A stretch of DNA of 64,000 nt. It comes from Candidatus Levyibacteriota bacterium (GTDB lineage Bacteria > Patescibacteriota > Microgenomatia > Levybacterales > UBA12049). Below are positions 6,658 through 44,931 of the stretch, piece after piece. Below the pieces are notes generated by a model. That model saw only the letters and a list, made by a program, of their open reading frames with translations, was not told the origin of the DNA and ran no database searches. The stretch is from the NCBI GenBank assembly GCA_963790825.1, contig CAWBPM010000002.1, positions 686,980-750,979 on the forward strand, written 5' to 3'. The position numbers and the translations under genes are program-made. Position 1 is the stretch's first letter. The number at the start of each line of letters is the position of its first letter.

Positions 6658-7179
6658 TTAATTACCTGGTATAACACAATCCCCCAGACTTACCATCACG
6701 TTTAAACTTATATTTACTCCGTACATCGGCAGTTCGACAATTCCGTCGCACATTTCTAATACTTCTTTCGACACTCCCTTAGTTTCATGTCCCACAACCA
6801 ACGCAATCGGAAAATGATAATCAAATGTGTCATACGGCATACTTCTTGCGTGTTGTTCTATTGCCACCACCGTCAAATTTTCAATTTTCAATTTTAAATT
6901 TTCAATTGCTTCAGCTGCTGTTGGCGAGTACTCCCAGGGAACCCATTCGGTTGTATTGATTGAGGCTTTTTTTATGCGCGTATTTGGCGGCGTTTCTGAG
7001 CCTTTACAAAGAATTACTTTTTCTGCCGCCACTGCATCGGCGAGACGAAATATCGCGCCTATATTATAAGTATCCAGAACATTATCCAAAATAATATAGA
7101 TCGGATTCCGCTTTACCGCTTGCAATTTTCCAGCGTCTTTTTCCGACAACCGAAGTTCTGCTGCTTTCATCTTTATCAT
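6658..7179 (-). CDS. SpoU/TrmH-family RNA 2'-O-methyltransferase (TrmL-sized)
   Basis: 173 aa with SPOUT motifs YNIGAIFRLADAV, VVGHETKGVS, ELPMYGVNISLNV. Contains a low-complexity ENLKLKIENL insert encoded by the 8-bp repeat at 6874-6909. Confidence 0.75.
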   Translation of the reverse strand: MIKMKAAELRLSEKDAGKLQAVKRNPIYIILDNVLDTYNIGAIFRLADAVAAEKVILCKGSETPPNTRIKKASINTTEWVPWEYSPTAAEAIENLKLKIENLTVVAIEQHARSMPYDTFDYHFPIALVVGHETKGVSKEVLEMCDGIVELPMYGVNISLNVMVSLGDCVIPGN

Positions 7180-7265
7180 GCTTGTAATCTTACTAAAATT
7201 CCTCTCTTTTTACAAATATCAACGTAACTTGACACCCTTAATAACGACAGGTATATAATTGATAA

Positions 7266-7715
7266 ATGACTGCCACCTCTCATGCAATAATCGGTACCGT
7301 GATTGCAGCGAAAATCGGTAATCCTGCACTTGCCATACCAATTGCAATTGCTTCTCACGTCTTAGCAGACTTGTTCCCGCACTGGGATTTCGGCACACAC
7401 AGAAAAGAAAAAACCAAATTGCGCTTCACGCTCGAATCAATCGGAGACGTTTTGCTTAGCTTCGTTGTAGCCTACTTTCTTATCCAATTTCTTGCACCCG
7501 CTACAAATCTCATATACCTTTTCATCGTAGTTCTGGCTGCACAGTCCGTTGACTGGCTTTTTATGCCGTATTTATATTTAAATATGAAATTTCCTCCTTT
7601 TTCCTGGGCATTTAAGTTTTCCCGCATGACAAATACTAAGTTGGATAAACCCTGGGGAATTATTGGTCAAGTTTGGGTACTTATTCTTCTGGTTGCCTTC
7701 GCGAAACTATTTTAA
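7266..7715 (+). CDS. hypothetical membrane protein (possibly YdjM/DUF457-like metal-dependent hydrolase)
   Basis: 149 aa, 4 predicted TM helices, SHVLADLFPH histidine/aspartate motif; the family assignment is tentative. Confidence 0.4.
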   Translation: MTATSHAIIGTVIAAKIGNPALAIPIAIASHVLADLFPHWDFGTHRKEKTKLRFTLESIGDVLLSFVVAYFLIQFLAPATNLIYLFIVVLAAQSVDWLFMPYLYLNMKFPPFSWAFKFSRMTNTKLDKPWGIIGQVWVLILLVAFAKLF

Positions 7716-7760
7716 ACTTTTAAATTTGACATTCCTTTTTCACCTATAGATACTAGAGAT

Positions 7761-8705
7761 ATGGATCAAAAAAAGAAAGACGATGAGCTCAGACTTCCCG
7801 CCTCCTTGTATGACCTTCCAAAAGTTCCCGAGGAAATACCTACCGTTGCATCTTCTCTTCACCCTGTATTTCCGACTATTCCTACCTCAACAACTTTCCT
7901 TTCCCTAAATCAAACTGCTTCCAATCCCTCCGAGACACCTATCCCCCCACAAATCAAACCTCAGTTTTCCACGTCACCGATCGCCAATCCTAACCCGCCG
8001 ATTTTTAGGAAAATATTTTGGGTTTTATTAATTTTAGTACTCATTGCCGTTGGGCTTTTCGGAACTGCGTATTATCTCGTTTACCACTCTTTAAATCAGA
8101 AACTCGACCAGATCAACCACGTGAATGATCGGAGTGTCATTCTTCCCTCTTCTCCTACTCCTACCCAAACACCACTTGTTTGTCCTCCGAATACCGATTC
8201 GCAAACAGCGTCTTGGTCAACGTATATAAATCAGGCGTATGGTTTTTGTTTCCGATATCCCGAAGGATTATATACTGATTTTTTAACCACATCTGATGCA
8301 AAAACTCACTTCGTTCAAATCCATGCAGATAACCCACCTGGTTCAAAAAACTTTGGCACAGATCTTCAGCTGACACTGCTACAAGTAAATTTACCGCTTG
8401 ATGATTTCCTGTCCTCCCAGGCAGCAACATTACAAACTACTTCAAAAGTTAAAACCACGGTAGGAAGTGACGTCGCATATCAACTAGTTCGTTTCCCCGG
8501 GTATTTAGAAACACCTGCAGTAACGGGCTATGACATCATTTTTAAACACACGGGCACATTTTATTCATTCCTTTTCAGCGAAGAAGATTCTGCGATAGTA
8601 GAAACAAATCATAGTGGGTTTCCAACACAACAAAAAACTTTTGACTTAGTAGTTTCTTCATTCCAACTTCTTGTAGCAAGTTCCGAGGGACAAATCAGCA
8701 AATAA
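7761..8705 (+). CDS. hypothetical secreted/membrane-anchored protein with Pro-rich N-terminus
   Basis: 314 aa; proline-rich low-complexity N-terminal region, one TM helix (IFWVLLILVLIAVGLFGTAYYLV), then a globular domain. Confidence 0.45.
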   Translation: MDQKKKDDELRLPASLYDLPKVPEEIPTVASSLHPVFPTIPTSTTFLSLNQTASNPSETPIPPQIKPQFSTSPIANPNPPIFRKIFWVLLILVLIAVGLFGTAYYLVYHSLNQKLDQINHVNDRSVILPSSPTPTQTPLVCPPNTDSQTASWSTYINQAYGFCFRYPEGLYTDFLTTSDAKTHFVQIHADNPPGSKNFGTDLQLTLLQVNLPLDDFLSSQAATLQTTSKVKTTVGSDVAYQLVRFPGYLETPAVTGYDIIFKHTGTFYSFLFSEEDSAIVETNHSGFPTQQKTFDLVVSSFQLLVASSEGQISK

Positions 8706-8741
8706 TTATTGATTTTTGTCAAATTTGGAAATCAAATATTA

Positions 8742-9164
8742 CTATTTACTCCTCTTCAGCTTTTTCTTCGGGTTATAAGGTATCATAAAGAAGAGAACTA
8801 AGAAACTGACGATACAAAACCAACCATAAAAATTTATAAAAAATACATCCATCTCATGATATGCAGGCAAACTGGGACAAACATCAACACATTCTAAGCC
8901 TAATCCAAGTTGTGCCCAGAAATATTGTACAACCACAAACCCGAACGCAATTACACATAAAATAACTCTATATTTATATTTTATAGCTAAAGCAATACTG
9001 ACTAAAAGTAAATAAATAATGAATGGAATAAAACCTATAATCCAATCGAGTAGTGGCTGTGGTGAAGAACCGTGGCTTCCACCACCGATATAAGCATTAA
9101 TATACTCCAGTACGATTTCAATAACTAAAGTAATAATTAAAACAATTACTAATAATCTCCGCAT
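8742..9164 (-). CDS. hypothetical integral membrane protein
   Basis: 140 aa, 4 hydrophobic helices, basic C-terminus. Confidence 0.4.
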   Translation of the reverse strand: MRRLLVIVLIITLVIEIVLEYINAYIGGGSHGSSPQPLLDWIIGFIPFIIYLLLVSIALAIKYKYRVILCVIAFGFVVVQYFWAQLGLGLECVDVCPSLPAYHEMDVFFINFYGWFCIVSFLVLFFMIPYNPKKKLKRSK

Positions 9165-9201
9165 CAGATTTAGTATGATACAGCAATATTATGGTGTCAA
9201 A

Positions 9202-11481
9202 TTATGATTGTTTCGCAGATATAGTTTTTTTTCTTCTAATAACGCGTTTAACCATATTGCGCTTCGTTGCTACTTTAGTATTATTTGCCGGACGTGCTGT
9301 TTTCTTAGCAAAACTTGCCATATCTCCTTCTTTCCAATTTTTTATATCTTGCAGTTTCCAAGCTGCGAAGTCGCAACTGGGATAATTCGCACAGCCGTAA
9401 AATGTTCTGCCTTTTCGGGTTTTCCTTTCAACGATTTTACCATTGTCTTTCGGACAAATTAAATTTGTGTCTTTTGTGAGCGCTTTTGTAAATTTACATT
9501 CAGGAAATTTGCTGCATGAGAGAAATTTACCAAATCGTCCATGTCGGATAACCAGATTTGCGTTGCAAACTGGACATTTTTCGTCAACTTCTTCAACCGC
9601 AATTTTTACTCTCTCTGCTCCCTCAACTGCTTTTAGTTTTTCTTCAAATGGAGTATAAAATTCCCGCATCATTACTTTCCATTCTTTTTGCCCATTTGCA
9701 ATTTGATCGAGTTCATCTTCCATCAATGCGGTAAAGGGAATATCGTCGATGTTAGAAAAATTCGTTACCAGAAAGTCGTTAACCGCAGTGCCAATTGCCG
9801 TCGCTTGATATCTTTTGTTAACTCGTTCGACATAACCGCGGTCGGAAATAGTTGAAATAATAGATGCATAGGTTGATGGTCGGCCAATGCCTTTTTCCTC
9901 AAGGGTTTGGATAATCGATGCGTCATTATACCTCGGCGGTGGTAGTGTTTCATGCTCAGTTGGTAGTACTGAATCCGTAATGAGAACTTCTTCTGCGGTA
10001 AATTGCGGCAAGCGAGTATCTTGCAATGCCTGGGGTGTCAGCTTAAGAAATCCTTCGAAAAGCAAAACAGAGCCATTCGCCTTTAATCGATAAGGATTAT
10101 CCTTCTTGTCATTCTGGAACGAAGCCAAGTACCGTCCGGTACCTGGCGAAGCTATAGAATCTTTTTCATGAGATCCTATCGTCCCGCTAAGCGGGACTCC
10201 GGGATTACTGGTGCTCGTATCCGCGTATACAGTCGTTGACTCAATAATCGCATCTGCCATTTGCGAGGCAACTGTCCGCTTCCAAATTAAATCATATAGT
10301 CTGCCGTGATCGCGTCCCAAATTCTGCTCAATCATCATGCCGCTAGTCGTAAATTTTGTCGGTCGTATTCCCTCATGTGCTTCCTGAGCCGATTTTTGCT
10401 TGGTCATATACATTCGAGGTTTTACCGGTAAGAATTTATTTCCGAATTCGTGCTGAATATAATTTCTGATCTGCGTTATAGCAGTCGTAGCCAAGGTAAC
10501 AGAATCGGTACGGTGATAGGTAATATGGCCTTCTTCATAGAGTTTTTGCGCCAAGTTCATTGTTCGTTTTGCCGCAAACCCGAATCTCCGAGCGCTGTCT
10601 TGCTGTAAAGTCGACGTCGTAAACGGAGCATATGGACTCCTTCGCATTTCCCGCTCGACTACATCCGAGACGATAAGCTGTTTCTGTTTCAAATCTTCGC
10701 TAATTTGGTCTGCTTTAGTTTTCGAGTCAATCTGTGTTTTGGACAATTTATATTCTCCATCGTAGAGATCAAACTTCTGCTGCAGCTCAATTTTCTCACC
10801 ATTAATTTCGATAAGCGTAAATTCTACTATTTCGTTTTTTGTTTTAAGTTTTAAATCTTGAGTTGCTTTACAAAGCATTGCATGTATTGTCCAATATTTT
10901 TCCTTGACGAACTTTTCAATCTCCCGCTCTCTTTCTACAATAAGCCGGAGTGCGACACTTTGCACCCGTCCGGCCGAAAGTCCGCGTCTGACTTTTTTCC
11001 AAAGTACTGGAGAAAGTTGATAGCCAACCAGTCTGTCTAAAATTCGTCTGGCAGTTTGCGCATCGACGAGATTCGTATCGATATCCCGGGGATTGGCGAC
11101 AGCTTCTTTAATCGCTCCTTCGGTAATCTCATGAAATACAACACGGACAAACTTGTCTGCCGATATACCCTTTCCTTTCCCGCCGTCTATTAGTAGTTTT
11201 TTAATGTCTGCAGAAATTGCCTCCCCTTCACGGTCAGGGTCAGTTGCCAGCATCACCTTACCTGCCGACTTCGCTGCAGACCGAAGCTCTGCGATCATGG
11301 ATTTTTTGTCTTCAACAATCTCATATTGGGTTGCAAAATCATTCTGAACGTCCACGCCTAATTTACTCTTAGGTAAATCCATGACGTGCCCCATTGAAAA
11401 TTTTATGTCATAATCTGACCCTAAAAATTTACTGATGGTTCGCGCCTTAGTTGGGGACTCAACTATAACTAGGTTTCTCAT
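9202..11481 (-). CDS. topA: DNA topoisomerase I
   Basis: 759 aa; Toprim N-terminus MRNLVIVESPTKARTISKFLG, active-site region, and C-terminal C4 zinc ribbons (CPVCNANLV...CSKFPEC; CPKDNGKIV...CANYPSC). Confidence 0.9.
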   Translation of the reverse strand: MRNLVIVESPTKARTISKFLGSDYDIKFSMGHVMDLPKSKLGVDVQNDFATQYEIVEDKKSMIAELRSAAKSAGKVMLATDPDREGEAISADIKKLLIDGGKGKGISADKFVRVVFHEITEGAIKEAVANPRDIDTNLVDAQTARRILDRLVGYQLSPVLWKKVRRGLSAGRVQSVALRLIVEREREIEKFVKEKYWTIHAMLCKATQDLKLKTKNEIVEFTLIEINGEKIELQQKFDLYDGEYKLSKTQIDSKTKADQISEDLKQKQLIVSDVVEREMRRSPYAPFTTSTLQQDSARRFGFAAKRTMNLAQKLYEEGHITYHRTDSVTLATTAITQIRNYIQHEFGNKFLPVKPRMYMTKQKSAQEAHEGIRPTKFTTSGMMIEQNLGRDHGRLYDLIWKRTVASQMADAIIESTTVYADTSTSNPGVPLSGTIGSHEKDSIASPGTGRYLASFQNDKKDNPYRLKANGSVLLFEGFLKLTPQALQDTRLPQFTAEEVLITDSVLPTEHETLPPPRYNDASIIQTLEEKGIGRPSTYASIISTISDRGYVERVNKRYQATAIGTAVNDFLVTNFSNIDDIPFTALMEDELDQIANGQKEWKVMMREFYTPFEEKLKAVEGAERVKIAVEEVDEKCPVCNANLVIRHGRFGKFLSCSKFPECKFTKALTKDTNLICPKDNGKIVERKTRKGRTFYGCANYPSCDFAAWKLQDIKNWKEGDMASFAKKTARPANNTKVATKRNMVKRVIRRKKTISAKQS

Positions 11482-11572
11482 AAACAGAAAAAAGCAACAG
11501 GGATGGTACGTTTTTTACTTATTGCGTTACAATATTGTAGTCTACATTGTACACAACGTGTCAAGAGGAAAC

Positions 11573-12667
11573 TTATTTACATGTATAAGTAGAACCATTA
11601 TTCGTAATTAACCCCTTCATCTCCATGACCGTTAACAAGGTCCCAAGTGCTGACGACTGAAGACCTGTCTTACGCGAAATGATATCAAAATGTAATGATT
11701 CATTTTGTAAAAGATCAAGAATTCTTTGCTCTTCCTTCGTCTCTCCTTTAATATTATTTCTTTTCCCTTTTTTAATTTTTAACTCTGAATTTTGAATTTT
11801 GAAATCTTTTAAGATATCTTTGGCGCTGGTTACCATTTTCGCACCACTTTCGATAAGTGATAATGGCCCCTTCGAAAGACTAGAAGTAATCGGTCCGGGG
11901 ACTGCGAAAACTTTTCGTCCGTCTTTTAAAGCATCTTTGGCAGTAATGAGTGCCCCGCTATCCGCTGCTCCTTCTGTCACCAGAACAGCTTGCGACAATC
12001 CGGCGATAATACGGTTTCTCGAAGGAAAAGATCCGACAAGTGGTGACTGCGAAAGAGGAAATTCGGAAACGACTACCCCACCACTGGAAATAATTTTATC
12101 GTACAAACGTTGATTGCTCGTCGGATAACAGCAGTCCACACCGCAACCCAAAACTGCAATTGTTATCCCCTGATTTTCAATTGCTGCTACATGAGCTACC
12201 GCATCAACGCCCATTGCTAAACCGGAAACAATAACATATTCTGCAGCTACCAATTCCCTAGTTAAGGAAGCGGTTACTTCCCGTCCATATGAGGTAATTT
12301 TTCTTGTCCCAACAACGGCAATTGTTCTCTCATTTTCCACTGTGTTAAACGCAAACGTTCCCCAAACATACAGAACAAAAGGCGGACGGAAACTTTCTTT
12401 TAGAAGTTTCGGATATGCTGAGTCATTTAGTGTTAAAAACCAAACATTTGCCAAACGTAATTTTTCTTCATATGCTTCAATTGAAAAATATTTACGAAAG
12501 GTAAGGAATTTTGCTGACAATTTCTTACCCAAACAAGTAGTAAGGTCTCTATCCGTTGCTTTCCATGCATTTTCAGCGCTGTTAAATGTTTTAAGAAGCA
12601 GTTGAAACTTTACCGGCCCGATTCCCATTGCATTCGAAAATCCCAACCAATATCCTTCCTCATCCAT
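11573..12667 (-). CDS. dprA: DNA processing protein DprA (Smf)
   Basis: 364 aa; Rossmann-like core IAVVGTRKITSYGREV...VSGLAMGVDAVAH...PSRNRIIAGLS...VTEGAADSGALITA plus a C-terminal winged helix; the C-terminal region carries the FKIQNSELKIK insert. Confidence 0.85.
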   Translation of the reverse strand: MDEEGYWLGFSNAMGIGPVKFQLLLKTFNSAENAWKATDRDLTTCLGKKLSAKFLTFRKYFSIEAYEEKLRLANVWFLTLNDSAYPKLLKESFRPPFVLYVWGTFAFNTVENERTIAVVGTRKITSYGREVTASLTRELVAAEYVIVSGLAMGVDAVAHVAAIENQGITIAVLGCGVDCCYPTSNQRLYDKIISSGGVVVSEFPLSQSPLVGSFPSRNRIIAGLSQAVLVTEGAADSGALITAKDALKDGRKVFAVPGPITSSLSKGPLSLIESGAKMVTSAKDILKDFKIQNSELKIKKGKRNNIKGETKEEQRILDLLQNESLHFDIISRKTGLQSSALGTLLTVMEMKGLITNNGSTYTCK

Positions 12668-13402: not shown

Positions 13403-13433
13403 GCGAGATCTCCGAATTTGAACAGTGGTAGAA

Positions 13434-15637: not shown

Positions 15638-15646
15638 GTGTAACAG

Positions 15647-17305: not shown

Positions 17306-18571
17306 CTATTTCAATCCCCCGATAACTTTCACTCTATTCAGAAGCTCCTGATCTTCAAGTACTTTTCCGGTTCCGCGGACTACTGAAGTTAACGGATCAT
17401 CGGAAACAACTACCGGCATGTGCGTTCGCTCGACGATCAGCTGATCAAGACCGCGAAGTAATGCTCCACCTCCGGTCAGCAGAATTCCCCGTTCTAAAAT
17501 GTCAGTCAGAAGCTCCGGCGGCGTCTCCTCAAGTACGTCAGCAATTGCCTGGATAATTTGGGTAAATACCGGAGCCAGCGCTTCACGAACTTCTACTTCA
17601 GAAACCCGTAAGCTTTTTGGTAATCCTGTTTCTATGTCTCTCCCCCTAATGATTGCCATTCTATTCCCCTGCTCTTCAATAACTTTCTCTTCTCTGTCGC
17701 TGCTGTCATTCTGGAGCGCGACAGTATGAAATACATAGTCCCCTTGTGAGGTAGCGATAGAATCTTCTGGGGATCCTATCGGTCGCTTTGCTCCTTCCAG
17801 GATGACATCATCTTGTTTTTTATTTTTCTCTTCCTGCTCTTTTAATTTCAATTTTGCATTTTGAATTTTGAATTTTGAATTTGTGTCGTATGCGCTGCCG
17901 ATTTGTATCTTTAGATCCTCTGCCGTTTTCTCTCCAAGCAAAAGTCCATGGCGAAGCCTAATATAGTGTAGAATCGCCAGGTCCATATCATCTCCTGCCA
18001 GTTTTAGAGACCTGCTCACGACAATACCACCCAGTGAAATAATTGCTATCTCAGTTGTTCCGCCACCGATATCGACCACCATTATGCCATTTGACTGAAA
18101 TACAGAAACTCCTTCACCGATTGCACTTGCCATCGGCTCTTCAATCAGATATGCCTCTCCTGCTCCAGCCGACAGTGCTGCTTCCCAGACTGCACGTCTT
18201 TCAACCTCGGTAACTGATGAGGGAATTCCGATCACCACCCTAGGTCGAGCCAGGGTTTGAGTAAAAAGATTTCCCATTTCATGCACCTTTTTAATGTAAA
18301 AGCTTATCATTGCTTCTGTTGCATCAAAATCAGAAATTACACCTCCCCGAAGCGGTTTGACTGTCACGATAGAAGCAGGCGTTTTTCCCAGCATTTTTTT
18401 GGCTTCAGTTCCTATGGCAATTACTTGTTTACTTTTTTTATGCATTGCAACTACCGACGGCTCACGAATAACGATCCCCTTGTTCTTGACAAAAACCAAT
18501 GTATTCGCAGTACCCAAGTCTATGCCTATATCATGGCTAAATAAACTGTAAAATTTATGTGCTAGATTCAT
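17306..18571 (-). CDS. mreB: rod shape-determining protein MreB with an internal insertion of about 90 aa
   Basis: 421 aa; actin-fold motifs IGIDLGTANT, VVDIGGGTTEIAI, GILLTGGGALLRGL. An extra K/E-rich segment (…NSKFKIQNAKLKLKEQEEKNKKQDD…) is partly encoded by the (TTTTGAAT)x4 repeat at 17847-17882. Confidence 0.85.
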   Translation of the reverse strand: MNLAHKFYSLFSHDIGIDLGTANTLVFVKNKGIVIREPSVVAMHKKSKQVIAIGTEAKKMLGKTPASIVTVKPLRGGVISDFDATEAMISFYIKKVHEMGNLFTQTLARPRVVIGIPSSVTEVERRAVWEAALSAGAGEAYLIEEPMASAIGEGVSVFQSNGIMVVDIGGGTTEIAIISLGGIVVSRSLKLAGDDMDLAILHYIRLRHGLLLGEKTAEDLKIQIGSAYDTNSKFKIQNAKLKLKEQEEKNKKQDDVILEGAKRPIGSPEDSIATSQGDYVFHTVALQNDSSDREEKVIEEQGNRMAIIRGRDIETGLPKSLRVSEVEVREALAPVFTQIIQAIADVLEETPPELLTDILERGILLTGGGALLRGLDQLIVERTHMPVVVSDDPLTSVVRGTGKVLEDQELLNRVKVIGGLK

Positions 18572-18640
18572 AGTTGAATAACAGCTCGCCCCGTCAAAGC
18601 CGCAGCATGAGGCGTGAACGAATACATGCGGCTCCTCACT

Positions 18641-18676
18641 CAGAATTTTGAATTATAAATTTTGAATTCTGAATTC
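18641..18676. repeat. GAATTTTGAATT-ATAA-ATTTTGAATTC element (8-bp-periodic TTTTGAAT family) in the mreB / O-antigen-ligase divergent promoter region
   Basis: Shares an identical 22-mer TGAATTATAAATTTTGAATTCT with the rplK leader copy at 42606-42636. Confidence 0.5.
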
Positions 18677-18803
18677 TTTATTATAGCCACATTCTAACAG
18701 CTTGCCGGTTCTTTCTCAACCGGAATCCCCAGTTCTTATAAATATTTATTGGTTTTTTCTCTTGTTCCTTTTAAATTTAATATGCTAGAATAGATGAATA
18801 ATT

Positions 18804-25471: not shown

Positions 25472-25886
25472 ATGGGTTTGTGCCTAGTTTGTAGCAGAAA
25501 ACCAAATAGGTCTTCCTATAAATACTGCTCAAATAAATGCCAACGTAATTATCAGTATCAAGAATATATCAGAAAATGGAAACTGGGGTTAGTAACTGGA
25601 GAAAGAGGCGTAGTTACTAAAAAATATTTCTAATCATGTTAAAAGATATCTTGTTGAAAAATATGGAGAACAATGTTTTCTATGTAAGTGGAATAAAAAG
25701 CATCCAGTAACGGGAAAAGTACCATTAGAGATAGATCATATAAATGGAAACGCTGAGGATAATCGCGAAGAAAACTTACGATTGATCTGCCCAAATTGCC
25801 ATGCATTGAGTTTAAATTTTAGAAATTTGAATAAAGGTAATGGGAGATATTGGAGAAAGATAAAATATATAAAAAATGTAATTTAG
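25472..25886 (+). pseudogene. HNH endonuclease, frameshifted (N-terminal Zn-ribbon part and C-terminal HNH core in different frames)
   Basis: Frame A 25472-25633 gives MGLCLVCSRKPNRSSYKYCSNKCQRNYQ...KKYF*. A frame open from 25614 to 25886 gives ...CFLCKWNKKHPVTGKVPLEIDHINGNAEDNREENLRLICPNCH... (complete HNH motif) but has no ATG. The frames overlap at an A6 run (25618-25623). Confidence 0.5.
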
Positions 25887-26148: not shown

Positions 26149-26327
26149 AACTAATAACTTGCATATTATGGACCAGGATTACATCTTCAATTCACGAAAC
26201 ATTTGTGCTAAAATGTGAGGTAGTCGTTAAGAAGTTGTATGGTTTTGCGAGAACATTAAAAGAAAATTCTCATTAAGTTTAGTTTAGGCATTGAGTCTTA
26301 AGTATTTAATTTTTAGTTTTAAGTTAT

Positions 26328-26501
26328 ATGGCAAAAGCAGAACACAGAATCATTATTGGTCTTGTTTGTCCAATTTGTAAAAACCGGAATTATGTTTCGC
26401 AGAAAAATAAGCTTGAAACACCGGAAAAGTTGGTGTTAAAGAAATTCTGCAAGCATTGCCGTAAAGTAACGGAGCACAAGGAAACAGAGAAACTCAAATA
26501 G
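26328..26501 (+). CDS. rpmG: 50S ribosomal protein L33
   Basis: 57 aa MAKAEHRIIIGLVCPICKNRNYVSQKNKLETPEKLVLKKFCKHCRKVTEHKETEKLK with the L33 C4 zinc-ribbon pattern; too short for the ORF track. Confidence 0.8.
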   Translation: MAKAEHRIIIGLVCPICKNRNYVSQKNKLETPEKLVLKKFCKHCRKVTEHKETEKLK

Positions 26502-26599
26502 TATTCAGTAACTTGTATTATGTATCATGCATAACTACAAAAAAAACTCACCCACTCCTTTATACTTAATACAAAATACCTTATACTTAATACAAATCT

Positions 26600-29829: not shown

Positions 29830-29833
29830 AATC

Positions 29834-38739: not shown

Positions 38740-39045
38740 GTGTTTTTTAGTAACAATAATATATTAAATCTTACTTGTCCGGTCTGTATCCGGTTGGCTT
38801 TTTACGGAGTAGCAATTATTACTATCCTAGTACTTTCTCTTAGCGGAAAACAATTATTAAGTCCGCAGATAGATCTTCGTAGCGTAAAAATCATTCCATC
38901 TATTCATAAAAAAGGTATTCTCGAGACAGATAAAATCTCCCAGATTTCTGCATCTTTTCATATGGTTCCCGAAATTGATGCTGAAGTACTCTTTGCCAAG
39001 CCGTCCCCCATCCTCATCCCTATTTTTACTGCATCATACAAGTAA
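38740..39045 (+). CDS. hypothetical small membrane protein (uncertain)
   Basis: 101-aa ORF, one TM helix, no motif. Confidence 0.25.
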   Translation: MFFSNNNILNLTCPVCIRLAFYGVAIITILVLSLSGKQLLSPQIDLRSVKIIPSIHKKGILETDKISQISASFHMVPEIDAEVLFAKPSPILIPIFTASYK

Positions 39046-39118
39046 TCATTGTTGCCAGATATGCAAAAAATAGATGCTAATGGGTTTATTTTACAAAGCC
39101 ATTTGAGGTAGACTAGAA

Positions 39119-39733
39119 CTACGTTTGATATTCGAGCTTTTTTGCTTGTTCCAGCCACATAAAATATCTTCTGACTGCGGCACATTTTCTGTTAATTGAT
39201 GAAAAGGAATATACTTGTTGTTTTACCAGATAATCTTCATATGAGGCAATAACATTGTCGCTGATATAATTCAGGAGGTAAAAATGAATTGCCGAACCTT
39301 TGTAGGAAGTTCCCATTTTGGTAATCCATTTCAGAAATTGCCGCACATCAATACAATAATATTTAATGGTCAAATTCGACGCGTTATATACTTTCAGATA
39401 ATAAGCAAATTCATCCATTTCCGCAAAATCTTTTTTTTGCGGTTTTGCATAAAGAGAGGTAATTATATTATGTTTGACCATTCCTTCTTCCTGTAGGTAT
39501 TGAAAAAACCTTCGCAAAGAGGAAATATGCCGATTCAGAGAAAGCTGCGAAAGTTTTTTAGTTTTTAAGTATTGTTTAATATGTTCCTGTGAAATTTTTT
39601 TAGGCGAAAAAGATGTATGACTCGTATTCTCATACCAATGGATAAATTGCGCTACATCGGCAAGATAATTTTTAACTGTTAATTTAGAAAGCTTTTGCTT
39701 AATGAGTAAATAAATACGAAACTGTTGTGTCAT
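39119..39733 (-). CDS. tandem phage-integrase N-terminal SAM-like (core-binding) domain protein, no catalytic domain
   Basis: 204 aa with two copies of the XerC/D-type N-terminal core-binding pattern (…LSLNRHISSLRRFFQYL… and …INRKCAAVRRYFMWL…); no RHRY catalytic domain. Confidence 0.5.
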   Translation of the reverse strand: MTQQFRIYLLIKQKLSKLTVKNYLADVAQFIHWYENTSHTSFSPKKISQEHIKQYLKTKKLSQLSLNRHISSLRRFFQYLQEEGMVKHNIITSLYAKPQKKDFAEMDEFAYYLKVYNASNLTIKYYCIDVRQFLKWITKMGTSYKGSAIHFYLLNYISDNVIASYEDYLVKQQVYSFSSINRKCAAVRRYFMWLEQAKKLEYQT

Positions 39734-39819
39734 GATAAATTCCTAATATTAATATAGTCTGACACAACGGAAAAAATTTTTCAAGATAGGTAAATTATTA
39801 ATAAGAAGTATTAAAGAAT

Positions 39820-40449
39820 CTATAAAGCGGTAAGTGCGAAAATTCCCATGGAGATTCCCAGAATCGTACCGCCGATAACATCCGATGTCCAGTGTTCTCC
39901 TAAATAAACCCGCGAAACAAGCATAGTAAAATCATAGAGAATAAGAATAACAAGAAGTAGTATCTTTATTTGAAAGGATACTTTTTTTAAGCGCCAAATA
40001 ATAACTCCCAATATAATCGATAAAAATAGTGTCCGCGCGCTGTGTCCCGACGGATAAGAAAAATCAGCTGAAACATATAGTTGAGGAAAATTTACCAGGC
40101 TTTCTGTTCGCAGCATAAAATGCGGCGGCGGCGGATGGTCAACAAATAATTTACCGAAAATTTCAAACAAATGAAAAAAACCAAAAAGAAAAAGGATCCA
40201 GAAACTTCGCCATTTCCGAAGAAATATAAGTATTATTGCAGTAAGCAGAACTGCTGATGTTTCAAAATTGCCTAAAATACTAAAAAAAGAAAAAATACCG
40301 TCAAACCGCCTGTTAATATGGTCCTGTAACCGAACGGTTGTATTAAAATCAAGACTCGTAAAAAGATTCCTGTGAACTAAAAATGAGAAAAGAAGAAAGA
40401 TTAGAAAAAAACCTACTGCTCCGAGAATTATTTGCCAGCGTTTTTTCAT
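39820..40449 (-). CDS. PAP2-family phosphatase (phosphatidic acid / undecaprenyl-diphosphate phosphatase type)
   Basis: 209 aa membrane protein with PAP2 motifs PSGHSARTLF and SRVYLGEHWTSDVIGG. Confidence 0.7.
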   Translation of the reverse strand: MKKRWQIILGAVGFFLIFLLFSFLVHRNLFTSLDFNTTVRLQDHINRRFDGIFSFFSILGNFETSAVLLTAIILIFLRKWRSFWILFLFGFFHLFEIFGKLFVDHPPPPHFMLRTESLVNFPQLYVSADFSYPSGHSARTLFLSIILGVIIWRLKKVSFQIKILLLVILILYDFTMLVSRVYLGEHWTSDVIGGTILGISMGIFALTAL

Positions 40450-40501
40450 TAATTAATCATAGCATGGAAACAGATTTTATTCCAAGAAGAAGCATGAGTT
40501 C

Positions 40502-41398
40502 TTATTTAATCTTTAGCTCTTTGAGGTATTTTTTGAAATCCTGGCTAAGTTCTGGATGATCCATACCAAACTCAACAACAGTCTTTAAATATTCAAGCTT
40601 ATTACCGGTATCATAATACTTTCCACCTTTAATCTTACTCGCAAGAACGTGTTTTTTGTCAGCCAGCATTAATTTAAGCGCATCATTATAGTACAGCTCT
40701 TCGCCCGGCTTGAGATTTGCCAGAGCCTGATCTAAGTAATTAAAAATATCGGGTGTAAAAATAGAACCTGAAACATTTGCCAGATTTGACGGTGCGTTTT
40801 CTTTTCCCGGCTTTTCAATAAGTGTTTCAACGTCAATCAGCCCTTCCCTCAGCTCTTTCCCGCCTGCTATTCCATATCGATCATAATCTTCGTCCTTCGT
40901 CACCTCAATACTCCCAAGTACCGACCAACCATACTCTTCGTAAACTTCAATTAATTGCTGAAAGCGGGATTTAGGTGTTGCTTTAATAAAATCGTCACTC
41001 CAAGTATAGATAAATGGCTCATCTCCGACGATTTGTCTGACATTCAGAAGCGGCGTACCATTACCATACGGGCCTTTTTGCCGGACATAGACGAAGTTGG
41101 CCATATTTGCTATTTTTTCAGTCTGTTCAAGAAGCGGCTTTTTCTTCTCTCCACCCATTCGCAGATTCTCAACCAGTTCCAGACTTGGACGGTCAAAATG
41201 ATCTTCGATTGAGCGCTTGTGATATCCAGTAACAATAATAATGTCTTCAATACCGGCATTTACCAGCTCTTCAACGATATACTGAATGATAGGCTTATCG
41301 ACAATCGGCAGCATTTCTTTAGGCATGGCTTTCGTTTGCGGAAGGAAACGTGTTCCAAAACCAGCGGCGGGAATCACAGCTTTTCTTATTTTTTTCAT
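40502..41398 (-). CDS. galU: UTP--glucose-1-phosphate uridylyltransferase
   Basis: 298 aa; MKKIRKAVIPAAGFGTRFLPQTKAMPKEMLPIVDKPIIQY... is the canonical GalU N-terminus. Confidence 0.85.
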   Translation of the reverse strand: MKKIRKAVIPAAGFGTRFLPQTKAMPKEMLPIVDKPIIQYIVEELVNAGIEDIIIVTGYHKRSIEDHFDRPSLELVENLRMGGEKKKPLLEQTEKIANMANFVYVRQKGPYGNGTPLLNVRQIVGDEPFIYTWSDDFIKATPKSRFQQLIEVYEEYGWSVLGSIEVTKDEDYDRYGIAGGKELREGLIDVETLIEKPGKENAPSNLANVSGSIFTPDIFNYLDQALANLKPGEELYYNDALKLMLADKKHVLASKIKGGKYYDTGNKLEYLKTVVEFGMDHPELSQDFKKYLKELKIK

Positions 41399-41546
41399 AT
41401 TATAAATACTATAAGTTGATATTAATTATATCTCATTTATTATCTGATAGCAATACTTTACACAGGATTGGTAATCTGATAAAATGTTCCAACTACTCCT
41501 AAGTTGTGGAGTAGATTTTTAGTGAACATTAAAAGTAAGATTATAT

Positions 41547-41738
41547 ATGACAACACCTCAGAAATTTTTACTAGAAGCGCGTGATGAGCTGAGAAAAGTT
41601 GTCTGGCCGACACGAGCAGAAATTATCAGACTAACATTGGTTGTTCTAACTATTAGTCTTTTGGTCGGTCTTTATATCGGCGTGTTGGATTATGTATTTG
41701 CAAAAATTGTAGAATTTATTATTAGTTTAAGAAAATAA
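41547..41738 (+). CDS. secE: preprotein translocase subunit SecE
   Basis: 63 aa; ELRKVVWPTRAEI then a single TM helix; immediately precedes nusG. Confidence 0.8.
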   Translation: MTTPQKFLLEARDELRKVVWPTRAEIIRLTLVVLTISLLVGLYIGVLDYVFAKIVEFIISLRK

Positions 41739-41739
41739 T

Positions 41740-42306
41740 ATGGATCAAGTAGCAGTAAAAGAAGAAAAGAACATTAATTCGGAAAACGGTAAATGGTATA
41801 TCGTACACACGTATGCCGGACATGAAAATAAAGTGGCCAAAAACCTCATGCAGCGGGTTGAATCCATGGGTTTTGAAGAGAGAATTTTTGAGGTAATCGT
41901 CCCGACACGTAATACTATTAAAGTAACACAAGGCAAGAAAGAAACTGTTAAAGAGAAAATTTTTCCTGGCTACGTTCTCATTAAAATGATTTTGAATGAT
42001 GAATCCTGGCTGCTGGTTCGAAGCACTCAAGGTGTTACTGCTTTTATCGGTGCAGCCAATAAGCCAACACCGATTTCTGAGAAAGAAGTTGAGGCGATCC
42101 AAAAGTTTATGCAAATGGAAGAGCCGCTCTACAAAGCAGCTTTCTCTATGGGTGAGGCAGTAAAGATCACAGACGGTCCGTTTGCCGATTTTTTAGGAAC
42201 AATTGATAATATTGACGAGGCGCGCGGAAAACTGCGCGTTTTAGTTAGTATCTTTGGTCGTGAGACACCGGTCGAGCTTGATTTTTTACAAGTTAAAAAA
42301 ATCTAA
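41740..42306 (+). CDS. nusG: transcription termination/antitermination factor NusG
   Basis: 188 aa; NGN domain (WYIVHTYAGHENKVAKNL) and KOW (GEAVKITDGPFADFLGTI). Confidence 0.9.
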   Translation: MDQVAVKEEKNINSENGKWYIVHTYAGHENKVAKNLMQRVESMGFEERIFEVIVPTRNTIKVTQGKKETVKEKIFPGYVLIKMILNDESWLLVRSTQGVTAFIGAANKPTPISEKEVEAIQKFMQMEEPLYKAAFSMGEAVKITDGPFADFLGTIDNIDEARGKLRVLVSIFGRETPVELDFLQVKKI

Positions 42307-42310
42307 ATAT

Positions 42311-42601
42311 ATGGAAAAAGAAGAATTTATAACAGAAAAAGCATTGCAGCAACTTTCCGGCGATCATGTTCTAAGTGCCCATAGAATACTGCGACTTGGG
42401 AATATAGAACTACCATTTGGTCCATATAGAGTTGTTGAGACAAGACCAGAGACTGACAGAAGATATTATTCTGAGCCGCAAGCAATGTATCCATCATATA
42501 CGACAATTATTGCACAAGTTCCAGGAGCTAGATCGGCAGAAGAAGCTCTTGCCAGGTATAACAGTCATCATGGGAGAAAAGATCATGTTAAAAAGGTTTA
42601 A
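42311..42601 (+). CDS. hypothetical small protein inserted between nusG and rplK
   Basis: 96-aa ORF starting at the ATG 5 nt after the nusG stop (the ORF-track version starting at 42254 overlaps nusG and is likely over-extended); no homology recognised. Confidence 0.4.
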   Translation: MEKEEFITEKALQQLSGDHVLSAHRILRLGNIELPFGPYRVVETRPETDRRYYSEPQAMYPSYTTIIAQVPGARSAEEALARYNSHHGRKDHVKKV

Positions 42602-42605
42602 TTAA

Positions 42606-42636
42606 TTCTGAATTATAAATTTTGAATTCTAAATTA
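42606..42636. repeat. same repeat element in the rplK 5' leader
   Basis: TTCTGAATTATAAATTTTGAATTCTAAATTA; related 8-periodic copies at 43090-43112 (rplA leader), 44101-44160 (rplJ leader), 44840-44915 (rplL leader). Confidence 0.5.
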
Positions 42637-42643
42637 TTAAAGT

Positions 42644-43069
42644 ATGGCTAAAAAAATTAAAACAATCATTAAACTAAATATTCCGGCCGGAGCCGCGACG
42701 CCTGCACCGCCTGTTGGACCGGCTCTAGGTCAACACGGACTGCCGATTATGGAGTTTGTGAAAGCGTATAACGATAGAACTCAGGACCAAAAAGGCAATA
42801 TTTTACCGGTCGTGATTACGGTATTTGAAGACCGCACATTTACTTTTATTACAAAAAAACCGCCGGTTGCCGAGATGATTAAAAAAGCCATGAGCCGGGA
42901 AAAAGGTTCACAAAAGCCGGGACGTGAGAAAGCAGGGACAATTTCCCTATCTCAAGCACGAAAAATTGCTGAAGATAAGCTTGAAGATCTAAACACTACC
43001 AATGTCGATCAGGCAGTAAAAGTCGTTATGGGCACAGCCCGGTCAATGGGCGTAGAAGTAGCAGGTTAA
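42644..43069 (+). CDS. rplK: 50S ribosomal protein L11
   Basis: [43 protein letters not shown]..., canonical L11. Confidence 0.9.
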
Positions 43070-43113
43070 ATGCCAAACAAAAACAAGTATTTAGAAATTA
43101 GAATTTAGAATTT

Positions 43114-43126
43114 CTCCTGAAAGGAG
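43114..43126 (+). promoter_or_regulatory. SD-sequestering hairpin CTCCT-GAA-AGGAG at the rplA ribosome-binding site
   Basis: Anti-SD CTCCT pairs with the AGGAG Shine-Dalgarno 4 nt before the rplA ATG; the same 14-mer TCTCCTGAAAGGAG recurs at 44911-44924 before rplL. Confidence 0.35.
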
Positions 43127-43130
43127 CTTT

Positions 43131-43970
43131 ATGGGAAAAATTAGAATTAAAACACTCGGCGATGAAACAGTCGAAAAAAAACAAAGAGAAGAGGCTCGTC
43201 TCGATCGAGAAGCTAAGCAGGCAAAAAAGCAAGCAGAAGCAAAAAAAATCGAAGCCGAAAAAGAAATGGGGCAAAAAGCCGAAGAGGTAAAAGTTACTGA
43301 AGCTCCTAAGTCTCAGGAGAAAGCAGCTAGTAGTGAAGAAAAGAAAAAAACAGTAAAGAAAAAGTTTGCTTTGAAAAGAGCGCAAAAGCATGGTGTAAAT
43401 TATGTAAACGTCGCGAAATTGGTAGAAAAAAACAAATCGTACTCCTTAGCTGAAGCACTTGTTGTTTTGCCGAAACTGAAACGGGCGAAGTTTGATGAAA
43501 CAGTCGAGCTACATATTAATACAACTCAGGCAGTTTCCGGCAATATGACACTTCCCCACGGAACCGGTAAGAAAATGCGCGTTGCGATCGCGGATGACGA
43601 CGTAATTGCCAAAGTTAGCAGTGGAAAAATTGATTTTGATATTCTTCTTGCTCAGCCGCAAATGATGCCAAAATTGGCAAAAGTTGCCCGTATCTTAGGC
43701 CCGAAGGGCTTGATGCCAAATCCAAAAAACGGCACAATAACAGCAAAACCTGAAGAAGTAGCAAAGAAATATGAAGGCGGCCAAATTAATTTTAAGTCAG
43801 AAGCGAAGTTTCCCATCCTTCATCTGACAGTAGGAAAACTCTCTTTTGCTGAAAAAAAGCTTGGGGAAAATATTGAAACAGCAATCAGAGCAGTCGGATC
43901 GCAAAATATTAAGACTTTAACATTAAAATCTACTATGAGTCCGGGAATCAAACTCAATCCTTTATTGTAA
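43131..43970 (+). CDS. rplA: 50S ribosomal protein L1 with a K/E-rich N-terminal extension of about 75 aa
   Basis: 279 aa; residues about 76-279 align with canonical L1 (…VAKLVEKNKSYSLAEALVVLPKLKRAKFDETVELHINT…GKKMRVAI…); residues 1-75 are lysine/glutamate-rich low complexity (KKQREEARLDREAKQAKKQAEAKKIEAEKE…). Confidence 0.85.
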   Translation: MGKIRIKTLGDETVEKKQREEARLDREAKQAKKQAEAKKIEAEKEMGQKAEEVKVTEAPKSQEKAASSEEKKKTVKKKFALKRAQKHGVNYVNVAKLVEKNKSYSLAEALVVLPKLKRAKFDETVELHINTTQAVSGNMTLPHGTGKKMRVAIADDDVIAKVSSGKIDFDILLAQPQMMPKLAKVARILGPKGLMPNPKNGTITAKPEEVAKKYEGGQINFKSEAKFPILHLTVGKLSFAEKKLGENIETAIRAVGSQNIKTLTLKSTMSPGIKLNPLL

Positions 43971-44100
43971 AAATACTTTCTTCCTTGCGCGAATCCAAAT
44001 AATCTGCTATTATAGTCAAGTCCAAAGACAGCAAGCGACGGGAAATGACCCAGTACCTTTGGGTACAGAAAAATAAGCCTTGCCGAGGAACGCAAAGAAT

Positions 44101-44160
44101 TCAGAGTTATGAATTCTTAATTCAGAATTAAATTATGAATTTTGAATTATAGATTCTGAA
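44101..44160. repeat. same repeat family, extended copy in the rplA-rplJ spacer
   Basis: …GAATTCAGAGTTATGAATTCTTAATTCAGAATTAAATTATGAATTTTGAATTATAGATTCTGAATTAAA…; 8-bp periodic (T)TNTGAATT units, shares GAATTTTGAATTATA with the 18641 copy. Confidence 0.45.
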
Positions 44161-44168
44161 TTAAACTG

Positions 44169-44190
44169 GCTCCTCAAAGGAGCTTTTTTT
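44169..44190 (+). terminator. hairpin plus U-tract (attenuator/terminator) in the rplA-rplJ intergenic leader
   Basis: GCTCC-TCAAA-GGAGC followed by T7; immediately followed by a 12-codon uORF (44191-44229, MSFCEKSEPPKL) and then the rplJ ATG. Confidence 0.4.
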
Positions 44191-44235
44191 ATGAGCTTTT
44201 GTGAAAAAAGCGAACCCCCGAAGCTTTAACGAAAG

Positions 44236-44826
44236 ATGGGTGAATACTTTTATAATATTATGGATAAAATAAGTACAAACAGACAAAAGAAAGAAGCGAT
44301 CGTCGCTGAGGTTTCTGAAAAAGTTCAGCGGGCTCGTGGCATGGTCTTTGCCAATTATCAAGGACTTACCCACCACCAGCTTGAAAGTATTAAAAAAGCT
44401 GCCAGATCGGTCGAAGCAGAATTCGTGGCGACAAAAAATACGCTCCTTCTGAGGACTTTGAAAGATAAAAATTTAACTGATGATGAGAAAAAACACTTTA
44501 AACGCCCGACGGCAACACTTTTTATGTACAATGATGTGGTCGAACCTCTGAAACAGCTTGCGAAAACGATTAAAGAATTGCAGATGCCGGTTGTTAAATT
44601 CGCTATTATTTCCCGCGAAGCGGGATCCGACTCCGCCAGAGAAGGGTTTCAGGTACTAGCAGCTGATCAGGTAATGAGACTTTCTACTTTACCGCCACTT
44701 CCCGTTCTTCGCGCGCAGCTTTTAGGACAAATGAACTCCCCGATTCAGGGTTTACATAGAGCACTGCAGTGGAATCTTAAGTCTCTTGTTATGACACTAG
44801 ATGCTATTGTTCAAAAAAAACAGTAA
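44236..44826 (+). CDS. rplJ: 50S ribosomal protein L10
   Basis: …MDKISTNRQKKEAIVAEVSEKVQRARGMVFANYQGLTHHQLESIKKAARSVEAEFVATKNTLLLRTL… is canonical L10; by alignment the second ATG at 44260 may be the true start. Confidence 0.85.
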   Translation: MGEYFYNIMDKISTNRQKKEAIVAEVSEKVQRARGMVFANYQGLTHHQLESIKKAARSVEAEFVATKNTLLLRTLKDKNLTDDEKKHFKRPTATLFMYNDVVEPLKQLAKTIKELQMPVVKFAIISREAGSDSAREGFQVLAADQVMRLSTLPPLPVLRAQLLGQMNSPIQGLHRALQWNLKSLVMTLDAIVQKKQ

Positions 44827-44931
44827 TTTTCAGTTTCTAATTTTTAATTTTCATTGAATGAATTAATTTTTAAACATTTAGTAATTGATTATTGATTGAG
44901 AATTGATAATTCTCCTGAAAGGAGGTGTATT

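Follow-up and report, generated by a model that had tools for sequence, protein, structure and literature searches.

Degenerate heptanucleotide repeat arrays in ribosomal-protein leaders and housekeeping genes of a Levybacteria genome

Introduction

No class of longer simple repeats is more over-represented in bacteria than the heptameric ones, which have no accepted function. The nearest described analogue of the arrays reported here are the TAACTGA heptamer repeats of marine Beggiatoaceae, some Cyanobacteria and Bacteroidetes, which form short tandem sets of 2-6 copies just 5' of start codons and inside ribosomal-protein operons, usually at genes with no Shine-Dalgarno (SD) sequence (MacGregor 2015, PMC4679880). 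In forward orientation these repeats carry stops in three frames, and only reversed copies are found in open reading frames (ORFs), in peripheral or non-conserved parts; their function was given as unknown, with S1 or cold-shock proteins proposed as binders, CspB taking one heptamer per protein (PMC4679880). Here we describe a family of degenerate, AT-rich arrays with a unit of approximately GAATTNT in a 64,000-nucleotide stretch of DNA, hereafter the window, from the genome of a Candidatus Levyibacteriota bacterium (assembly GCA_963790825.1, contig CAWBPM010000002.1, positions 686,980 to 750,979 of the forward strand). All coordinates below are those of the window, read on its plus strand, unless they are attached to another contig.

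Heptameric simple sequence repeats (SSRs) as a class are over-represented in bacteria, favour about 4 units and sometimes form inverted pairs; polymerase slippage has been cited as their origin and their function stated to be unknown (Rehm et al. 2015, PMC4692102). Examples include GGGAATC in Xanthomonas and GGGGAYT in Nostoc (Rehm et al. 2015, PMC4692102), as well as the short tandemly repeated repetitive (STRR) heptamers of Calothrix and other Nostocales and the over-represented heptamers among the long simple sequence repeats (LSSRs) of Mrazek et al. 2007, as summarised in PMC4679880 and PMC4692102. A further case is that of the 7-bp ATCTTTC repeats in the hmw1A/hmw2A promoters of Haemophilus influenzae, which are phase-variable (PMC8262952, PMC12721329): there, long perfect tracts switch by copy number at genes for surface proteins.

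Results

A repeat family of period 7 exceeds compositional expectation

Tandem Repeats Finder (TRF) reports period 7 (or 14) at 6876-6907, 11769-11803, 17846-17882, 18643-18675, 42604-42637, 43089-43113, 44096-44163 and 44824-44851, and the copies of TTTTGAAT inside mreB begin at 17859, 17866 and 17873, i.e. 7 apart. A preliminary description of this DNA had proposed a dispersed repeat family of 8-bp period, and while AT-rich tandem arrays are indeed found at every position it listed, all three lines of evidence, including a lag scan, correct the period to 7 bp. In that scan, where an array is called at 21 or more of 28 matches at lag 7, we found 7 arrays at period 7 and 0 at periods 4-6 and 8-13, such that only 7 and 14 yield arrays, against a mean of 0.01 expected period-7 arrays in 200 local third-order Markov simulations. 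The pattern RAATTNTRAATTNT has 12 matches in the window against 0.30 expected, and the 22-mer TGAATTATAAATTTTGAATTCT, said earlier to occur identically at two sites, is present in exact copies at 18649 and 42609, 24 kb apart, against 0.01 expected; the lone 8-mer TTTTGAAT is not significantly enriched (13 observed, 8.2 expected). The Markov simulations and the excess of pattern matches rule out chance or composition as the source of the arrays, and the family proposed at the outset is in this respect genuine. Furthermore, L001, an independent Logan assembly, matches the window without any difference over 6.5 kb including four arrays; these are therefore not assembly noise.

Individual arrays span 20-70 bp and hold 3-9 degenerate unit copies. 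The GAATTNT core is common to 8 loci, and the unit order GAATTAT-ARATTYT-GAATT occurs in three intergenic arrays. Two arrays have an exact 3-unit order in common, with p ~0.014 under unit shuffling; as this test is post hoc, we take the 22-mer identity as suggestive only and do not use it as proof of copying. Six of the approximately 9 family arrays lie in the non-coding 13% of the window, about 87% of which is genic (binomial p ~3e-4 by our own calculation). The family thus combines head-to-tail 7-nt units, an excess over composition and over-representation in non-coding DNA, the features by which the heptamer SSR class is recognised.

Arrays lie upstream of every ribosomal-protein gene in the window

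With a G+C content of about 40%, the window includes genes for 16S rRNA and five tRNAs, an mreBCD/PBP2 cluster, dprA, the SpoU-family methyltransferase gene spoU and the series secE-nusG-rplK-rplA-rplJ-rplL; the nearest named homologues of its MreB, L1 and DprA are those of Candidatus Levybacteria (Patescibacteria, candidate phyla radiation). An array is found in the upstream spacer of all five ribosomal-protein genes of the window (rplK, rplA, rplJ, rplL and rpmG) and of 2 of the 44 other genes (Fisher p ~1e-5 by our own calculation, four of the five sharing one operon), and the sole intergenic copy outside these leaders sits in the divergent spacer between mreB and a Wzy_C (O-antigen ligase-like) gene. 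The mRNA-sense strand of the leader arrays reads GAAUUNU: 11 of the 12 pattern matches are on the plus strand, on which the twelfth also reads GAATTTA GAATTT. This orientation contains TGA, so that a stop occurs in every frame within three units.

Initiation signals in the window bear on these leaders. SD-like GGAG/GAGG motifs precede only 4 of 49 genes, despite a 16S rRNA 3' end of CCUCCU (...GGATCACCTCCTTTCT), and a -10-like hexamer is found 4-10 nt 5' of the ATG in 12 of 49 genes, over a background of 4.7%. Such boxes close to start codons suggest that many mRNAs of this genome may be leaderless. Ordinary TTGACA/TATAAT-like promoters are recognisable elsewhere in the window, and a sigma-70 scan did not consistently mark the arrays as promoters. 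A gene for a cold-shock protein was looked for within the window and none was found.

The rplK array (42603-42637, plus strand; units TAATTCT GAATTAT AAATTTT GAATTCT AAATTAT) starts immediately 3' of the stop that closes the preceding ORF, leaving 6 nt between its last base and the rplK ATG; there is no SD. Likewise, an array upstream of rpmG that was not among the copies listed in the preliminary description (26279-26327, plus strand; approximately TTWAGTN x7, 21/28 in the period scan) runs to the base before the ATG at 26328, again with no SD; the identity of the gene is given by a Pfam match to L33 (1.1e-18). At these two genes, as in the TAACTGA system, a stop-containing array stands within a few nt of an SD-less start codon. 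Both families are mostly intergenic, and the copies in the secE-nusG-rplK-rplA-rplJ-rplL spacers are, like TAACTGA sets, internal to a ribosomal-protein operon. At rplA and rplL, unlike that pattern, an SD hairpin lies between array and ATG. The rplA array (43089-43113, plus strand; approximately TTAGAAT x3.6, TRF period 7, 88% matches) adjoins CTCCTGAAAGGAG, a 5-bp CUCCU-GAA-AGGAG hairpin at 43114-43126 (plus strand) in which the rplA SD is paired with an anti-SD-like CUCCU, and which is an associated feature, not a repeat unit. The same CTCCTGAAAGGAG recurs exactly before rplL (44912-44924), and a related CTCCTCAAAGGAG is present in the rplJ leader (44170-44182); by its pairing, CTCCTGAAAGGAG is a candidate regulatory hairpin that may sequester the SD.

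Upstream of rplL, where a single copy had been proposed, repeats are present but weak and fall into two degenerate arrays: one at 44824-44851 (plus strand; TAATTTT x4, TRF period 7, 71% matches) starting from the rplJ stop codon, and another at 44883-44910 (plus strand; NNNTTGA x4), partly complementary to the first and adjoining the second CTCCTGAAAGGAG hairpin with its SD. The rplJ leader holds an array (44096-44163, plus strand), detected by TRF, with about 9 GAATTNN units that are self-complementary via GAATTC cores. It is flanked on its 5' side by an L10-leader-like core (44004-44095, plus strand; AAGACAGCAAG...CUUGCCGAGG) and on its 3' side by a GGCUCCUCAAAGGAGCU hairpin followed by U7 (44168-44190, plus strand), which forms a terminator- or attenuator-like end of the leader. 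The core matches Rfam RF00557 with 33.1 bits and E = 0.0087, under the gathering score of 44, and an Rfam scan of the window at gathering threshold returned no leader family; the conserved RF00557 core AAGACAGCA...UGCCGAGG is present 5' of rplJ and is followed by the hairpin and U7, and the region looks like a divergent L10-leader member that does not reach the gathering score. Within the same stretch (44004-44229), a 12-codon mini-ORF, MSFCEKSEPPKL, with its ATG at 44191, follows the U7 hairpin 5' of the likely rplJ start; an exact-protein lookup of RplJ read from the first ATG gave no match, and the true start is probably 44260.

The intergenic array outside the ribosomal-protein leaders (18643-18677, plus strand; units GAATTTT GAATTAT AAATTTT GAATTCT GAATTCT) lies 126 nt from the Wzy ATG and 71 nt from the mreB ATG, just 3' of a TATAAT-like box on the mreB strand.

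Several neighbouring features were recorded alongside these leaders. A 96-aa ORF without Pfam match (42311-42601) lies between nusG and rplK, a position at which relatives have only an 11-118-nt spacer; given that short spacer, the ORF is either lineage-specific or spurious. The 5' part of rplA (43131-43390) encodes an N-terminal K/E/A-rich extension of L1 of about 80 residues, common to Levybacteria relatives (260-299 aa) and lacking in most bacterial L1 proteins. Directly 5' of tRNA-Trp, a direct repeat of about 21 bp, CCTTATACTTAATACAAAATA, occurs twice at 26551-26593 (= 3 x 7 nt).

Coding arrays are in frame and stop-free, and those of mreB and dprA recur in orthologues

As previously reported, the arrays in mreB, dprA and spoU are in frame and encode the peptides quoted for them. 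All three genes are on the minus strand and their coding strand has the open, stop-free orientation: each of the three frames of (TTTTGAA)n meets a TGA, whereas (TTCAAAA)n is free of stops, and because three 7-nt units make 21 nt, or seven codons, it reads NSKFKIQ, which accounts for the near-identical peptide in MreB and DprA. Slippage by a single unit inside these genes would be frameshifting, as had been argued for a period of 8, since 7 is likewise not a multiple of 3. The restriction of coding copies to the open orientation, outside conserved domains, is a further likeness to the TAACTGA repeats; here, unlike there, two coding copies occupy the middle of conserved housekeeping proteins and are retained from species to species.

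The mreB array (17846-17882, minus strand; coding strand AATTCAA x3, AATGCAA, AATTGAA) encodes NSKFKIQNAKLK, and provides the first 14 residues of a lineage-specific segment of about 78 aa (residues 229-306) without counterpart in solved MreBs; in 18 Levybacteria-type MreBs, all carry a variable-length insertion at the same site, beginning SKxKxQxxK. The dprA array (11769-11807, minus strand; peptide FKIQNSELKIK) lies where the Rossmann-like domain is joined to the C-terminal winged helix. The interdomain linker at this point is a normal one that adds no net length over the Rhodopseudomonas structure 3maj, and FKIQNSK or close variants recur in many DprA orthologues. In spoU, a TrmH-family gene, the array (6876-6907, minus strand; plus strand AATTTTC x4.6, peptide ENLKLKIENL) has the coding-strand unit ATTGAAA, and the two units that would give TGA carry T instead (ATTTAAA, ATTTGAC). 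Its site corresponds to a gap of only 2 residues relative to solved structures, and the loop concerned is hypervariable across the lineage: relatives have up to about 60 residues inserted there. The proposal that the coding copies are in-frame insertions holds only in a loose sense, with the segment of about 78 aa in MreB, none in DprA and the 2-residue gap in SpoU. That they are recent insertions is contradicted by the alignments, in which MreB (SKxKxQxxK) and DprA (FKIQNSK) of related Levybacteria have the same peptide at the same site, again encoded by heptamer DNA; on this comparison, the coding copies are best read as old features common to the lineage, in tolerant loops and linkers.

Near the 3' end of spoU, a run of five G at 6682-6686 (minus strand) coincides with an apparent frame shift: the annotated C-terminus ...SLGDCVIPGN* is unlike that of homologues, and the +1 frame gives GIVLYQVIKDL*, which agrees with them. 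Either the run is an error of sequencing or assembly, or the gene has a true frameshift and loses its last helix.

Orthologous arrays keep site and period while unit letters change

Comparison with Levybacteria relatives at the DNA level shows where arrays persist and how they vary. In mreB, contigs L002 and L004 align gap-free to the window, with 5 units in all three species; L002 has AGTTCAA/AATTCAA units and L004 has ATCTCAA/ATTTCAA units, the same substitutions being repeated across several units. AATTCAA arrays occur at the same dprA site in L210 and L211, and the orthologues that carry the MreB and DprA gene copies at the same codon positions have about 60-80% protein identity. Such gap-free arrays at conserved sites, with changed unit letters, point to evolution in place with exchange between units. 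Outside genes, the Wzy orthologue of L004 is preceded by (TTGAAAA)4, 5 nt before the ATG, and the rplA leader of L006 matches that of the window at about 40 of its final 45 nt, the array end and an identical CTCCTGAAAGGAG hairpin included. Other spacers of the same operon are built from other units, AATAGTA in L207 and AAAAGTN and AAGTTAY in L208. The rplK-rplA spacer is 1 nt long, with no array, in L205, L207 and L209, and the spacers that hold arrays range from 1 to 118 nt between species. Orthologous arrays of differing units argue against a fixed binding sequence as well as against a mobile element.

Period-7 arrays are plentiful in Levybacteria relatives as a whole, against three in all across about 300 kb of distant bacterial L1 loci examined as a control. 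Unit number did not vary in the comparisons available: L001 does not differ from the window, nor L002 from L003 (two samples of one relative), and mreB has 5 units in 3 species. As a separate observation, opposed pairs of heptamer arrays fill mreB-mreC and nusG-rplK spacers of relatives (L002 4109-4217, L207 1994-2075, L208 1883-1985).

Palindromic and inverted arrays fold, direct arrays do not

An AU-rich RNA hairpin had been suggested for the repeat unit, and folding of each locus against shuffled sequences supports this for part of the family. The rplJ leader forms a long AU-rich hairpin with a minimum free energy of -29.7 kcal/mol and z = -4.16 (0 of 200 shuffles as good), in a folded segment that includes the terminator-like hairpin as well as the array, and the 18630-18690 region gives z = -3.4 on the plus and -1.7 on the minus strand. 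By contrast, the rplK leader with its copy of the 22-mer yields z = -0.26, and other direct arrays also fold no better than shuffles (rplA +0.98, rpmG -0.8, Wzy of L004 -0.3). The rplL leader (44827-44935) is intermediate at z = -1.6, and coding arrays show no significant RNA fold (z +0.4 to +1.6, with mreB at +1.6). Palindromic or inverted arrays of relatives fold as well: z is -4.3 for the L207 spacer, -3.1 for the L208 spacer, -3.2 for the mreB-mreC spacer of L002 and -2.5 for the L006 spacer. Taken over these loci, palindromic cores (GAATTC) or inverted pairs give long AU-rich hairpins, while direct arrays are unstructured.

Related heptamers occur across phyla and in viral contigs

A scan with TGAATTNTNAATTTTGAATT, one genome per species, returned at least 120 loci; the figures in this paragraph refer to the matches listed. 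By our rough tally, (TTTTGAA)n is found at about 40 loci in Nostocales and other Cyanobacteria, about 45 in Bacteroidota and 8 in the candidate phyla radiation, with the remainder in Acidobacteriota and others, so that this heptamer is itself present in many genomes of the Nostocales from which STRR repeats were described. The same 20-mer arose independently in unrelated Bacteroidota. Among 117 arrays not at locus ends, long ORFs contain 0 in the orientation with stops and 35-40 in the open one, 25 of the latter being clearly internal and encoding ...IQNSKFKIQNS.... Within 80 nt 5' of an ATG-initiated ORF there are 19-21 forward and 7-9 reverse arrays, and 15 further reverse arrays are ambiguous; a cross-phylum orientation rule was dropped once these 15, in open frames 5' of the first ATG, were seen to be so. 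The modal copy number is 4 units, and the loci hold 279 period-7 arrays, 103 of them of the seeded unit, against 7-16 each at periods 5, 6, 8 and 9.

In viral contigs, composition-matched permuted heptamers form 48, 48 and at least 120 arrays against 85 for TTTTGAA; the hexamer version is at least as common and the octamer version rarer (20). This collection is rich in giant viruses and a poor proxy. Permuted units being about as frequent there, we rejected the idea that TTTTGAA is a special universal motif.

Two recurrent arrangements were observed in Nostoc-type genomes of the Nostocales (L092, L097, L158, L166, L185, L196). One is a composite of the form (GGCAGAA)n ... TTTAA(TTTTGAA)nTTGATTT ... 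(CATCTCC)n with other heptamer arrays, and the other has (TTTTGAA)n after an ATG on the opposite strand (MNQFKIQNSKFKI...).

Other features of the window

Outside the repeat family, 579-bp tandem repeats at 57638-61975 lie in a 3317-aa ORF (53742-63695, minus strand) for a giant protein with 193-aa repeats. Seven copies are 100% identical over 300 nt, and diverged copies are also present; the perfect identity suggests very recent amplification or assembly collapse. Between tRNA-Thr and tRNA-Tyr there are two short ORFs, 25472-25633 (Cys-rich) and 25782-25886, the latter of which, with the preceding frame, has an HNH-like motif (...DHINGN...NLRLICPNCH). This has the appearance of an HNH endonuclease gene that is split or frameshifted.

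Discussion

The GAATTNT family is a Levybacteria example of the known and unexplained class of heptamer SSRs. With the LSSR/STRR repeats it shares the preference for period 7 over neighbouring periods, the intergenic excess, the typical number of about 4 units, occasional inverted pairs, the flanking of the same genes in related species with varying sequences, and slippage as the proposed origin. Those examples, however, are G-rich (quadruplex-forming) or come from large genomes, and strain length polymorphism is documented for them whereas none was seen here; nor is a ribosomal-protein leader link reported for the LSSR/STRR examples. The TAACTGA repeats remain closest in anatomy and differ in that the unit here is GAATTNT and degenerate rather than perfect, that the lineage is Levybacteria, and that some arrays are palindromic or inverted and fold. 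As in the hmw promoters, 7-bp tandem units can lie between promoter and start codon, where such repeats can affect expression; unlike the hmw tracts, the arrays here are short, of 3-5 imperfect units, with a copy number conserved across species (mreB), and belong to housekeeping genes.

On balance we think it probable that the arrays are heptanucleotide SSRs produced by slippage and tolerated in spacers and loops, with a possible role in leaders. Slippage together with homogenisation within arrays is the best-supported account of their origin: slipped-strand mispairing in a 7-nt register would make the arrays, and exchange between units would keep their periodicity. The arrays are observed to persist only where they can be tolerated, in intercistronic spacers, 5' leaders and, in the stop-free orientation, variable loops or linkers. 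In transcripts, direct arrays would place an A/U-rich unstructured stretch with three-frame stops before a start codon, and palindromic or inverted arrays would form long AU hairpins, as the sequences and folds partly bear out. Leader arrays might then act as SD-independent initiation or spacer regions for internal ribosomal-protein cistrons, with S1 or cold-shock-type OB-fold (oligonucleotide/oligosaccharide-binding) proteins, whose footprint is about 7 nt, as possible binders, and the coding copies would be tolerated passengers. Internal cistrons cannot be leaderless, and an A/U-rich, unstructured and stop-rich spacer before them is a plausible SD substitute; this part of the reading, a function of leader arrays in SD-poor initiation or spacing, is plausible and at the same time tentative, and we would sooner expect it to fail than to hold.

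Several observations weigh against this account. No unit-number polymorphism was seen between L001 and the window, between L002 and L003 or among the three mreB species with their 5 units, so that active slippage is not apparent. Persistence across about 30-40% protein divergence exceeds what is expected of neutral microsatellites, and the retention of about 40 of 45 nt in the rplA leader, between species whose L1 proteins are about 53% identical, points to constraint on the sequence itself rather than to filler. The exact 3-unit order common to two arrays goes beyond random unit order (p ~0.014, post hoc). Concerning the leader role, orientation relative to start codons has no clear bias among the cross-phylum matches listed, and the existence of relatives with 1-nt spacers and no arrays implies that any function is dispensable.

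Some of the same evidence would be expected if the arrays were selected cis-acting RNA elements, rows of 7-nt sites for an OB-fold protein (a cold-shock protein or S1) that would drive or tune translation without an SD in highly expressed internal cistrons. Selection would then keep the mreB and dprA copies for their RNA rather than their peptide. The presence of arrays upstream of 5/5 ribosomal-protein genes, their uniform GAAUUNU sense in leader mRNA, the SD-less starts of rplK and rpmG, the conserved rplA leader in L006, and the periodicity retained in mreB and dprA while unit letters and residues change are all in keeping with such sites, as is the same anatomy in the TAACTGA system, where CspB binds one heptamer per protein (PMC4679880). 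Yet unit sequences differ at orthologous sites of related species, some relatives lack any spacer, permuted heptamers are roughly as frequent as TTTTGAA among arrays of viral contigs (48, 48 and at least 120 against 85), orientation counts among the cross-phylum matches listed are without clear bias, the RNA made from coding copies is the complementary A-rich strand, and the window holds no cold-shock protein gene; we therefore regard the proposal as a minority possibility, worth keeping in sight but doubtful. Less probable still is a role of the palindromic or inverted arrays as intercistronic hairpins, likened to the enterobacterial repetitive extragenic palindromic (REP) sequences and bacterial interspersed mosaic elements (BIMEs), that would set the relative output of neighbouring cistrons through RNase III-type processing, mRNA stability or participation in the L10-leader attenuator. 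The significant folds in the rplJ leader, the mreB/Wzy spacer and the L207, L208, L002 and L006 spacers, and the position of the rplJ hairpin between an L10-leader-like core and a terminator-like hairpin, fit that role, which we nonetheless judge improbable: the direct arrays (rplK, rplA, rpmG, Wzy of L004) and all coding arrays lack significant structure, the hairpins are AU-rich with G-U pairs, their arms cannot be aligned between species, and the self-complementary core of the unit (GAATTC, TTCGAA) yields hairpins automatically.

That the arrays are instead read as DNA, by a transcription factor or nucleoid protein recognising GAATT at 7-bp spacing, would account for the GAATTNT core at 8 loci, the GAATTAT-ARATTYT-GAATT order in three intergenic arrays and the location of the 18643 array within a divergent promoter region. 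Most copies, however, are intercistronic within an operon or intragenic rather than at promoters, other loci have recognisable ordinary promoters, consecutive sites 7 bp apart do not face the same side of the helix, and relatives build their orthologous arrays from different units (ATCTCAA, TTCGAAT, AAGTTAC, AATAGTA), so that the fixed regulator-binding motif raised in the preliminary description is very improbable. That description also drew a likeness to Rickettsia palindromic elements (RPEs), and the corresponding idea, a small mobile or copied element, RPE-like or resembling miniature inverted-repeat transposable elements, inserted into leaders and in frame into genes, is largely refuted and to our mind the least credible of all. 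RPEs are dispersed elements of 100-150 bp with a defined consensus and palindromic ends, inserted after orthologue divergence. Like them, the arrays here are repeated DNA in frame inside conserved genes that adds a peptide segment, and copying could produce the identical 22-mer at two loci 24 kb apart, the exact 3-unit order in common (p ~0.014 under unit shuffling) and the near-identical MreB and DprA peptides. Unlike RPEs, they are degenerate tandem 7-mers of 20 to 70 bp with variable units, the flanks read here have no common ends or terminal inverted repeats, the gene copies stand at the same codon positions in orthologues of about 60-80% protein identity, and the same 20-mer has arisen independently in unrelated Bacteroidota.

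One may also extend the RNA-site proposal to heptamer arrays as a general cis-element of SD-sparing bacteria (candidate phyla radiation, Bacteroidota, Cyanobacteria), in which each unit would be one docking site for an OB-fold chaperone (a cold-shock protein or S1 domain), 3-5 units before a start codon would replace the SD for internal cistrons, and the mreB and dprA periodicity would result from selection on RNA. We consider this generalisation unlikely; were the docking-site reading true, a repeat class on record since 1990 yet never explained would gain a function. What is new here is that a lineage of the candidate phyla radiation joins the record of heptamer repeats, that the arrays are tightly linked to every ribosomal-protein gene of the window in a genome nearly without SD sequences, and that orthologous arrays in two housekeeping genes hold their 7-nt periodicity while the unit letters change. 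For annotators, it follows that K/Q-rich 'NSKFKIQ' segments in many phyla stem from one DNA repeat and that AT-rich periodic leaders of this kind are not mobile elements. The rplK and rpmG leaders, together with the mreB and dprA arrays, offer test cases for distinguishing neutral products of slippage from sites of SD-independent translation or RNA-chaperone binding.

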